Position numbers and translations under genes: made by a program. Below, piece after piece: positions 62,855 through 64,000 of a stretch of DNA of 64,000 nucleotides. This stretch comes from Escherichia coli. Its GTDB lineage: Bacteria > Pseudomonadota > Gammaproteobacteria > Enterobacterales > Enterobacteriaceae. Each line of letters starts with the position of its first letter. Positions within the stretch are counted from its first letter, which is position 1. The notes under the pieces were generated by a model. It was not told the DNA's origin. It saw nothing but the letters and a program-made list of their open reading frames with translations, and ran no database searches. The DNA lies in assembly GCF_036507355.1 (NCBI RefSeq), contig NZ_AP027877.1; one strand, given 5' to 3'.

Positions 62855-63349
62855 TTATGAACAACTGTCCATGATTTCGTTTAAGAATGAAGAGAAATCA
62901 CTAAACGAACTGAATATATTTTCTGTGCCAATATTATCTCTAATTTCAAAAAAGTTACTTTTAATGTCATAAGTAAATATTGAAATGCTATCATCCCCGA
63001 TCACTAACCGTTCTTGTAGATCAGGGTTTATGAAATCATCATTATTTCTATAAAATTCATTTACGGCAAAAAGGTTTTTAACTGAAGGTTCTGGAATCGA
63101 GAGGCTAAATAATCGTAATCCATTAACTTCGAATCCATCCATTGCTCTTAAAAAAGTAAGATAATCAGGTTGATTCTTAAAAAGAATACTAACTTCATTA
63201 CATAACTTCTCCAGGCAATTAGTTGAATTAGAATTAAATTCTATTTGGATTATACTTTCAATAAATGATTCCTTGAGCGGTGCTTCAAATGGATAGTCTA
63301 AATCATTCATCATTTTTATTAATTTGTTTATTTGGGTTTTAGTCATCAT
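62855..63349 (-). CDS. putative immunity protein of the adjacent nuclease toxin (yrhA-like)
   Basis: 164-aa acidic ORF, AT-rich; its start overlaps the stop of the HNH-domain ORF by 4 bp. Confidence 0.55.
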   Translation of the reverse strand: MMTKTQINKLIKMMNDLDYPFEAPLKESFIESIIQIEFNSNSTNCLEKLCNEVSILFKNQPDYLTFLRAMDGFEVNGLRLFSLSIPEPSVKNLFAVNEFYRNNDDFINPDLQERLVIGDDSISIFTYDIKSNFFEIRDNIGTENIFSSFSDFSSFLNEIMDSCS

Positions 63350-63591
63350 TTTGTGGGTTCCATAATATTTTTCATGGGAGGATAAATTGAGCCAGATGGA
63401 ATGGCCCAGGGAGTGATTTTACTTTCACCTACTAATATTCCCTTAGCTATTCGTGATTGCATGTTAGTAAAAACTTTATGATATGGTTCGTTTTCGATTA
63501 ATACTAAATTTTCGAAATCATTAGTACCACCATCATCTAGAGATAGTTTATGGTGAACATTATAATTTAGAGGAACATAGCCCTTTCTCAT
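63346..63591 (-). CDS. HNH-type nuclease toxin domain ORF (C-terminal module of a polymorphic toxin)
   Basis: 81-aa ORF with HH, N, H motif (NVHHKLSLDDGGTNDFENLVLIENEPYHK); the frame stays open upstream to a TAA at about 63733. Confidence 0.55.
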   Translation of the reverse strand: MRKGYVPLNYNVHHKLSLDDGGTNDFENLVLIENEPYHKVFTNMQSRIAKGILVGESKITPWAIPSGSIYPPMKNIMEPTK

Positions 63592-63732
63592 TCTTAAAAG
63601 GTCTTCGGCGTTGAATCTTCCAGATGCTTCGGAGGTTTTTGCAAGTTTGATAAGAAAATTTTTTCTTACAGTTTTGTTAAACTCCTTTCGTAAGTTAGCT
63701 AAGTCTTTTGAAGGTCTCTTAATGTATATTAT

Positions 63733-64000
63733 TTATATTATGTCTATGCCATCAAGAAGTTTTTGTTGACCTCTAAGTTTGCCTAAGTAACTATTTATTT
63801 CTGTATATGTATCAACTCTAGAACGCTTTGTTAAAAGAATAGATGCTGTTGCTATCGCTATGCCCGCTGTTTTTTCATTTAGTATTTGATCATAGCCTTT
63901 GATTGCATCTCCACCCAGTTTTTCCGCAGTATCTCTGAATCCTTCAATGTTCCCATTGTATACGCCACCAGCAGCAAGTAGCCTGCCAACAGCTTTGCTG
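63733..64000 (-). CDS. 3' end of a large toxin-like ORF entering from beyond the window (partial; yhhZ-like?)
   Basis: Minus-strand frame open from the window edge to a TAA at about 63733-63735 (...GKLRGQQKLLDGIDII-stop); by my reading the same frame as the downstream HNH-domain ORF. Confidence 0.4.
   Translation of the reverse strand, partial: SKAVGRLLAAGGVYNGNIEGFRDTAEKLGGDAIKGYDQILNEKTAGIAIATASILLTKRSRVDTYTEINSYLGKLRGQQKLLDGIDII

Follow-up and report, generated by a model that had tools for sequence, protein, structure and literature searches.

A probable nonsense-mutated pseudogene of the Hcp-nuclease effector gene yhhZ with a retained immunity-type gene in Escherichia coli

YhhZ of Escherichia coli has been described as an evolved Hcp protein with an HNH domain (PMC2907695) and has been assigned, within the His-Me finger superfamily, to group 32 (PMC5714182). 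The yhhZ-yrhAB cluster has been reported in E. coli O104:H4 and 55989 (PMC3309015). Three further reports, which summarize Ma et al. 2017, describe Hcp-ET1, an orphan Hcp-HNH effector of STEC (E. coli strains that produce Shiga toxin) and O104:H4, as a protein that is delivered by type VI secretion system 2 (T6SS2), degrades target DNA and is neutralized by ETI1, which is encoded downstream (PMC6730261, PMC6099711, bioRxiv 10.1101/2024.03.05.583533). Hcp-ET1 (STEC004, O104:H4 C227-11; AAF13_24945) is likely the same locus as yhhZ. Here, we analyze a stretch of 64,000 nucleotides of E. coli DNA (contig NZ_AP027877.1 of assembly GCF_036507355.1, hereafter the window), the last part of which carries a copy of yhhZ on the minus strand. 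Whereas the effector reported as Hcp-ET1 is full-length and active, the copy in the window is truncated before the toxin, and we conclude that it is very probably a nonsense-mutated pseudogene of an Hcp-nuclease effector whose immunity-type gene has been retained.

Full-length alignments of the region concerned, at 96–99% identity, were obtained with 3,759 complete genomes of E. coli, in which the gene order is tssD (yhhZ in K-12), yrhA, yrhD and yrhB, beside ggt. These alignments identify the last part of the window as the 3' end of the yhhZ-yrhA-yrhD-yrhB locus on the E. coli chromosome, in agreement with the yhhZ-like naming in a preliminary description of the stretch that had been made from the letters alone. 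The AT-rich block reported there was also recovered, with a guanine-plus-cytosine content of 0.31–0.35 across positions 62500–64000 as compared with about 0.55 in the adjacent ggt and ugp genes. An open frame enters the minus strand from beyond position 64000 and terminates, as had been noted, at a TAA (63735–63733) within an A/T-rich tract, ATATAAATAATATAC, also given as GACATAATATAAATAATATAC; the translation of positions 63346–63999 reads LGKLRGQQKLLDGIDII, then the stop, then IIYIKRPSKD. In the intact references, tssD/yhhZ is a single gene of 1,179 bp and 392 codons. Translation and alignment to two of them (L001 and L002) assign positions 63736–64000 to codons 176–263 of the truncated tssD-like frame and the premature stop at 63733–63735 to codon 264, and the sole disabling difference from both within yhhZ is a G>T exchange at 63735 that converts this codon from GAA (Glu) to TAA (Glu264stop). 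Set against intact orthologues from the corresponding locus, the copy thus bears a disabling lesion. Past the stop, the encoded residues do not differ from those of L001, and the module encoded there contains no further disabling change. Of the two kinds of lesion that had been considered beforehand, the nonsense mutation therefore stood, while a frameshift in place of the stop was rejected, as the alignment is one of pure substitution; a length difference of 2 bp from the references maps to the yrhD-yrhB spacer, outside yhhZ. Otherwise, the locus closely resembles intact E. coli yhhZ loci, with which it shares the site by ggt, the gene order, 97–99% DNA identity and the sequence encoded past codon 264. 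It differs from them by the Glu264 stop, by the loss of the yrhB start codon and by the 2-bp intergenic deletion.

Comparison with the intact genes, which had been proposed as a check on the strain specificity of the stop, indicated that the Glu264stop allele is apparently real but rare. A 71-bp query around the stop matched 3,505 complete genomes, only two of which (A30 and GPT24-02) are identical to it across the TAA; codon 264 was GAA in the matching sequences that were checked. In both of these genomes, the RefSeq annotation lists tssD as a pseudogene on account of an 'internal stop'. The same allele has thus already been flagged in public annotation and the feature as such is known; the present analysis documents its rarity in the population, the lesion itself, the orthology and the fold assignments. 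The split into a 263-amino acid (aa) Hcp open reading frame (ORF) and an 81-aa ORF that results from Glu264stop was furthermore found in roughly ten contigs from metagenomes or sequencing runs. The source of the window belongs to a sparsely sampled E. coli lineage, with no complete genome in the collection nearer than 98.4–98.5% over 22–25 kb. The nearest complete genomes are A30, from a baboon, and GPT24-02, which are also the two that share Glu264stop.

A sequencing or assembly error in a gene that is intact in the organism would be in keeping with a deviation of just one base within an A/T tract of low complexity and with the presence of two more private changes of the window nearby. However, the same TAA recurs in two complete genomes and in about ten contigs obtained independently, which makes an error confined to this window unlikely. 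The change is, moreover, a substitution and not an error in homopolymer length, and relative to GPT24-02 the remaining genes of the window that were compared are intact. We therefore consider such an error highly improbable. Even less credence is given to the idea that Hcp and nuclease are normally laid out as two genes or that programmed read-through of the TAA yields some full-length toxin. The frame is indeed kept across the stop, and nothing more specific speaks for this reading, while among the 3,505 matching genomes just two match exactly with the TAA, the allele is flagged as a pseudogene by RefSeq and neither a recoding signal nor an RNA family was found when positions 61500–64000 were scanned with Rfam and for repeats. 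These scans gave nothing credible, with one snoRNA match staying under the gathering score, and sites resembling promoters or terminators did not exceed in frequency those of shuffled sequence. A two-gene layout was also rejected because all intact references that were examined contain an uninterrupted gene of 392 codons; the preliminary description had named separate genes in homologues as a finding that would speak against a detached toxin domain, and this is not what the homologues look like. The combination of Hcp and toxin in a single polypeptide, a feature of Hcp-ET proteins, is present in the intact orthologues but not in the window, where the TAA separates the two. The copy is therefore to be seen as a pseudogene of a member of this family and not as a functional member.

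What the gene encodes when intact can be read from its orthologues. The N-terminus of L001 matches TIGR03344 (TssD) with 123 bits (cut-off 58.9; E 1e-35) and PF05638 (E 1.8e-12), and PF05638 (T6SS_HCP) is also present on the 263-aa upstream products of other Glu264stop carriers, the Hcp domain itself lying outside the window. Of the delivery types that had been suggested initially, Hcp was thus confirmed, while Rhs or CdiA was not, since the carrier is Hcp. In a comparison of genes with GPT24-02, type VI secretion genes were not found within the 64-kb window. Residues 1–228 are conserved in proteins of Citrobacter, Salmonella and Enterobacter with 47–73% overall identity, and the invariant positions of this N-terminal body extend to S228. 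The C-termini of these proteins, on the other hand, consist of HNH, PF15644, PF11429, PF21814 or unassigned domains. Such a conserved body joined to differing C-terminal toxin domains is the hallmark of polymorphic toxins whose delivery body is fixed, and the relatives thereby display the conserved delivery body (1–228) with interchangeable toxin modules that characterizes Hcp-ET proteins. To judge from these sequences, the point at which delivery body and toxin are swapped lies near residue 230, away from the stop, which directly precedes the nuclease domain's first structured element.

The part that is detached by the stop comprises codons 265–392 plus the natural stop codon (63346–63732, minus strand). 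The last 129 residues have homologues with 38–55% identity in short proteins from Bacillus and other organisms outside Escherichia, and the conservation among homologues starts at about the segment YLGKLRG...EIIYxKR. Five columns of the module, H61, H62, N72, N76 and H86 (His324, His325, Asn335, Asn339 and His349), are invariant in 22 homologues including those from Bacillus, and the same five catalytic or metal-binding residues are all present in the window (63478–63555, minus strand). The absence of HNH residues upon alignment, which would have spoken against a nuclease, was thus not observed. The alignment with HNH proteins of the PDB runs over VHH..GG..N, and Pfam places an HNH domain (PF01844) at 322–343, though as a weak match with E 0.015; Col-Pyo_DNase yielded E 1.7, and the best phmmer match in the PDB is likewise weak (E 0.033). 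An AlphaFold model of the C-terminal module, built on the homologue alignment, has a predicted local distance difference test score (pLDDT) of 89.9 and features strands 58–62 and 77–81 and a helix 82–97. Without exception, the top 24 Foldseek matches of the model are DNase domains of pyocins or colicins, with probabilities of 0.97–1.0, and model and structure search agree on a beta-beta-alpha-metal fold. The best matches in the PDB are the DNases of pyocin S2, pyocin AP41, ColE7 and ColE9, followed by Serratia Rhs2-CT, with probabilities of 0.95–1.0 and a template modeling (TM) score of about 0.42. On this basis, the C-terminal module is predicted to be a colicin/pyocin-like HNH DNase.

The resemblance to ColE7, ColE9 and pyocins S2 and AP41 includes the modeled beta-beta-alpha-metal HNH core, the size of about 130 residues, the basic character (isoelectric point (pI) 9.66) and the acidic candidate inhibitor that is encoded directly downstream. 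It has clear limits, as the alignments with the DNase domains cover 77–88 columns with a TM score of about 0.42 and 15–28% identity. Furthermore, the immunity (Im) proteins of colicins have a four-helix fold, whereas the protein encoded next to YhhZ, YrhA, is modeled as a SUKH fold, and colicins and pyocins rely on receptor-mediated import, whereas delivery of YhhZ would, by analogy, occur via Hcp and the type VI secretion system. A similar picture emerges from a comparison with orphan or degraded Rhs and CdiA modules. Shared with them are an AT-rich islet, a toxin that has been disabled, an immunity gene that has been retained and an additional orphan gene of the immunity type (for YrhB, Imm35), while the carrier is Hcp in the present case. 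In addition, Rhs and CdiA remnants are old C-terminal tips displaced by recombination, while the remnant in the window arose in place by a nonsense point mutation.

Could the detached domain still be produced on its own? The first 47 in-frame codons past the stop (63592–63732, minus strand), which account for strand 1 and the greater part of helices 1–3 of the modeled nuclease, contain neither ATG nor GTG nor TTG. An ATG at 63591 then opens the 81-aa ORF (yhhZ codons 312–392), which closes at 63346 on the same strand and carries NVHHKLSLDDGGTNDFENLVLIENEPYHKVF, the HH..N..N..H motif, so that the arrangement is as first described. This ORF retains the full HH..N..N..H core free of lesions, its ATGA overlap with yrhA is kept, and gene callers list it in 22 contigs, all of which would fit a stand-alone nuclease that is translated from this ATG or by re-initiation and restrained by YrhA in the manner of a toxin-antitoxin pair. 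Nevertheless, the ORF sets in only at residue 49 of the 129 residues of the module, and although the beta-beta-alpha-metal core is kept, the N-terminal third of the domain is missing, with strand 1 (residues 2–5) and three helices (9–32, 35–40 and most of 43–50) of the modeled fold. Its start is not preceded by a Shine-Dalgarno sequence, the calculated anti-Shine-Dalgarno pairing being −1.4 kcal/mol as compared with a mean of −1.9 for the block, −5.3 for the start of yhhZ and −3.3 for yrhA, and an NCBIfam search with the 81-aa fragment returned no match. The ORF arises, moreover, only as a side effect of lesions that seldom occur in the population. Since both the N-terminal part of the fold and a Shine-Dalgarno sequence are lacking, a free active nuclease is unlikely; translation of the 81-aa ORF would be weak or absent, and the internally initiated nuclease that had been offered as an alternative has very little in its favor.

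The end of the 81-aa ORF shares 4 bp (63346–63349, ATGA) with the start of yrhA (62855–63349, minus strand), an intact gene for 164 amino acids. Both this overlap and the acidic nature of the encoded protein had been recognized before; YrhA has a pI of 4.26 and contains 26 Asp plus Glu versus 13 Lys plus Arg residues. The YrhA of the window is identical to WP_000988496.1, the commonest sequence in E. coli, and belongs to the YrhA family NF038335 of NCBIfam (E 1.5e-36). As Pfam did not provide a match for YrhA and a sequence search of the PDB retrieved only chance matches to antibody chains, a search by fold was needed. The model of YrhA (pLDDT 80.3) found 3d5p (SMI1/KNR4), 2prv (YobK), yeast Knr4, 2icg and Syd as its top matches in the PDB, with probabilities of up to 1.0 and TM scores of 0.47–0.57, all in line with a SUKH fold, and some sources name homologues of YrhA SMI1/KNR4. 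Like SUKH proteins such as B. subtilis YobK, for which the predicted fold agrees with a probability of 1.0, YrhA is encoded by a gene that directly follows a toxin gene; it differs from them in that SMI1_KNR4 of Pfam is not matched at E≤10. Adjacency, overlap, acidity and the modeled SUKH fold all fit a candidate immunity protein.

Further downstream, yrhD is a small ORF (62605–62769, minus strand; annotated with 51 aa from 62760, the longest ORF having 54 aa), and yrhB (62123–62407, minus strand) is an Imm35-family orphan immunity-type gene, the orthologues of which carry PF15567. A comparison of loci revealed that the start codon of yrhB (62407–62405) is ATA in the window because of a change at 62405, while it is ATG in all 53 other loci examined. 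No in-frame ATG, GTG or TTG was found upstream of the ATA before a stop. With its start lost and no upstream alternative, yrhB is the second site of damage in this toxin/immunity islet. The 2-bp deletion (AG, at about 62575) in the intergenic spacer between yrhD and yrhB was present in none of 52 other loci.

Taken together, these data suggest the following scenario. Intact YhhZ would be an 'evolved Hcp' of the Hcp-ET type, composed of a tube-protein domain (residues 1–160), a conserved linker reaching to about residue 230 and an HNH DNase module of roughly 130 residues. For related strains, this effector is reported to be delivered by type VI secretion and to kill neighboring cells through breakdown of their DNA, with the neutralizing immunity protein encoded by the following gene. 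A single G>T transversion would have turned Glu264 into TAA, such that translation ends after 263 amino acids, past the Hcp domain and the linker. The nuclease module would be left behind as an untranslated remnant and the gene as a pseudogene, with the toxin function presumably lost. The intact yrhA gene could still protect against kin with an intact toxin. Given that its own ribosome-binding site is weak (−3.3 kcal/mol) and that it overlaps with yhhZ by ATGA, translation of yrhA was probably coupled to that of yhhZ and may now be lower. At face value, the finding has little significance, being a further instance of decay in a known orphan effector gene of the type VI system. It does, however, provide a clean example of the erosion of an interbacterial weapon in which the immunity gene outlasts the toxin half, a pattern that is expected where a strain stops firing the weapon yet still meets armed kin.

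Several points weigh against this interpretation. From sequence alone, support for the HNH assignment is weak, as the Pfam E-value illustrates, and the E-values of the Foldseek matches are just about 1e-3 over 77–80 aligned columns. The Hcp domain and the promoter lie beyond the window, and the N-terminal part was deduced from orthologues and other carriers of the allele, just as the link to Hcp-ET1 is an inferred one. Toxin activity and expression of yhhZ are predicted from sequence and model. That the module is free of lesions past the stop fits a recent event and equally fits a retained function. The missing Pfam match of YrhA is a further point, as is the situation in K-12 MG1655 (L064 3022–4164), which differs from the window in that yrhA is cut by an IS1 insertion while yhhZ is intact. 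Toxin and antidote are therefore not an obligate pair, and the toxin is not self-lethal under laboratory conditions.

The position of the stop deserves a closer look. In intact genes, our own inspection of codons 262–267 revealed a tandem 9-bp quasi-repeat, ATAATAGAA followed by ATAATATAC, which spans codons 264 and 267 (63724–63741 of the window, minus strand) and reads ATAATATAA followed by ATAATATAC in the window. A second nonsense allele, Tyr267stop (TAC>TAA; L021 875–877, corresponding to 63726–63724 of the window), is situated three codons past the stop of the window and occurs in 127 complete E. coli genomes including those of the type strain ATCC 11775, NU14 and MS7163; strain N31 carries it as well. 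Glu264stop turns the first and Tyr267stop the second unit of the repeat into ATAATATAA. Each mutation thereby copies the base of the neighboring unit and renders the repeat more uniform, and both are G:C>T:A transversions. Transversions of this type are the class associated with oxidative damage, and copying of the base of a neighboring unit is what is expected from misalignment by one unit. Two distinct nonsense alleles three codons apart, one of them in so many complete genomes, and the production of ATAATATAA by both would fit a mutational hot spot, all the more when set against the 174 single-base changes that are able to create a stop in yhhZ.

The flanking sequences point in the same direction. 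Glu264stop occurs on at least two haplotypes, as carriers of the A30 group have C at −13 and C at +59, while the metagenome contig OIXL01003141.1 (L023 1446–1477) has T at both positions, like K-12. The nearest relatives of this contig are non-carriers, all with GAA, which suggests an independent origin of the allele. The window itself is as distant from other carriers as from non-carriers. It differs from the other full-length carriers at 13–15 positions (23 in the case of L010) and from a non-carrier at 12, while the carriers, with the exception of L010, differ among themselves at 0–7 positions; over 531 bp, carriers and some non-carriers are equally near to the window, with 4 differences.

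It might thus be argued that the stop reflects a hot spot or selected disarmament, in the sense that ATAATAGAA followed by ATAATATAC recurrently gives rise to TAA by misaligned templated replication or by oxidative G:C>T:A transversion, and that loss of the toxin with retention of Hcp and immunity is possibly favored in strains without a cognate secretion system. On the other hand, this pattern was noticed post hoc and involves three or four events only. The L023 haplotype stems from one metagenome contig, was found in no complete genome and may be an error or a chimera. Missense products of conversion (GAC at 264 or 267) did not occur among 62 loci, and lesions elsewhere in yhhZ, at codons 25, 32 and 287 and in the form of several frameshifts, are at least as frequent. 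It should also be considered that AT-rich genes have many codons that are one step from a stop. On balance, we regard this explanation as rather unlikely, and it is decidedly doubtful that the quasi-repeat is a built-in hot spot which recurrently yields ATAATATAA with a TAA at 264 or 267 and detaches the toxin in independent lineages while Hcp and immunity are kept. Were it true, local sequence context, beyond selection alone, would shape where such toxins break, which would explain the stop three codons away in the E. coli type strain and in many genomes of extraintestinal pathogenic E. coli (ExPEC) and would represent a small-scale recurrent route for disarming a toxin while keeping the immunity gene. 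The possible hot spot is the only mildly new point of this analysis.

Decay of yhhZ in E. coli is by no means confined to the quasi-repeat. In O145:H28 RM12761 (L016 803–3209), yhhZ and yrhB are both pseudogenes, the former through a stop at codon 25 plus, at codon 148, an insertion of 4 bp and the latter through a frameshift; erosion of the same islet in this lineage is independent of that in the window. Lesions in yhhZ were also present in 9 of 42 metagenome contigs. They comprised deletions of 1, 2 and 14 bp as well as stops in place of codons 32, 264 and 287, and one of these contigs is badly gapped; assembly errors may account for some of the lesions. The RefSeq product name ('tube protein TssD' versus 'Hcp1 family effector') was tried as a proxy for pseudogenes and failed, as three out of four genomes with such a name had an intact gene. 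A pseudogene-rich, Shigella-like genome as the source of the window was not supported either. All other genes of the window that were compared with GPT24-02 are intact, so that we are dealing with local erosion of a toxin islet and not with a genome-wide pseudogene load.

When genome contigs were scanned for the stop tract, a single one was retrieved, CABHOW010000200.1 (L015), from a metagenome-assembled genome labeled 'Flavihumibacter sp.'. This contig of 4 kb contains E. coli yhhZ-yrhA with 98.7% identity to the window and looks like a contamination of the assembled genome by E. coli. The type strain of E. coli was missed by the scan because it carries Tyr267stop.

The comparison with GPT24-02 also brought to light differences elsewhere in the window. 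Between hicAB and nikR (20394–26012) resides a six-gene sugar-utilization islet that is absent from the otherwise collinear GPT24-02 and encodes a class II aldolase, an FGGY kinase, the IIC, IIB and IIA components of a galactitol-type phosphotransferase system and a GntR regulator. Conversely, the region from acpT to yhhS (32222–33458) is devoid of an aryl-polyene-like lipid cluster of about 15 kb that GPT24-02 has beside acpT and that contains genes for ketosynthases, an MMPL transporter, a glycosyltransferase and others. Finally, two intact type II toxin-antitoxin pairs are present in the window, hicAB at 19713–20344 and ataRT at 47173–47973.

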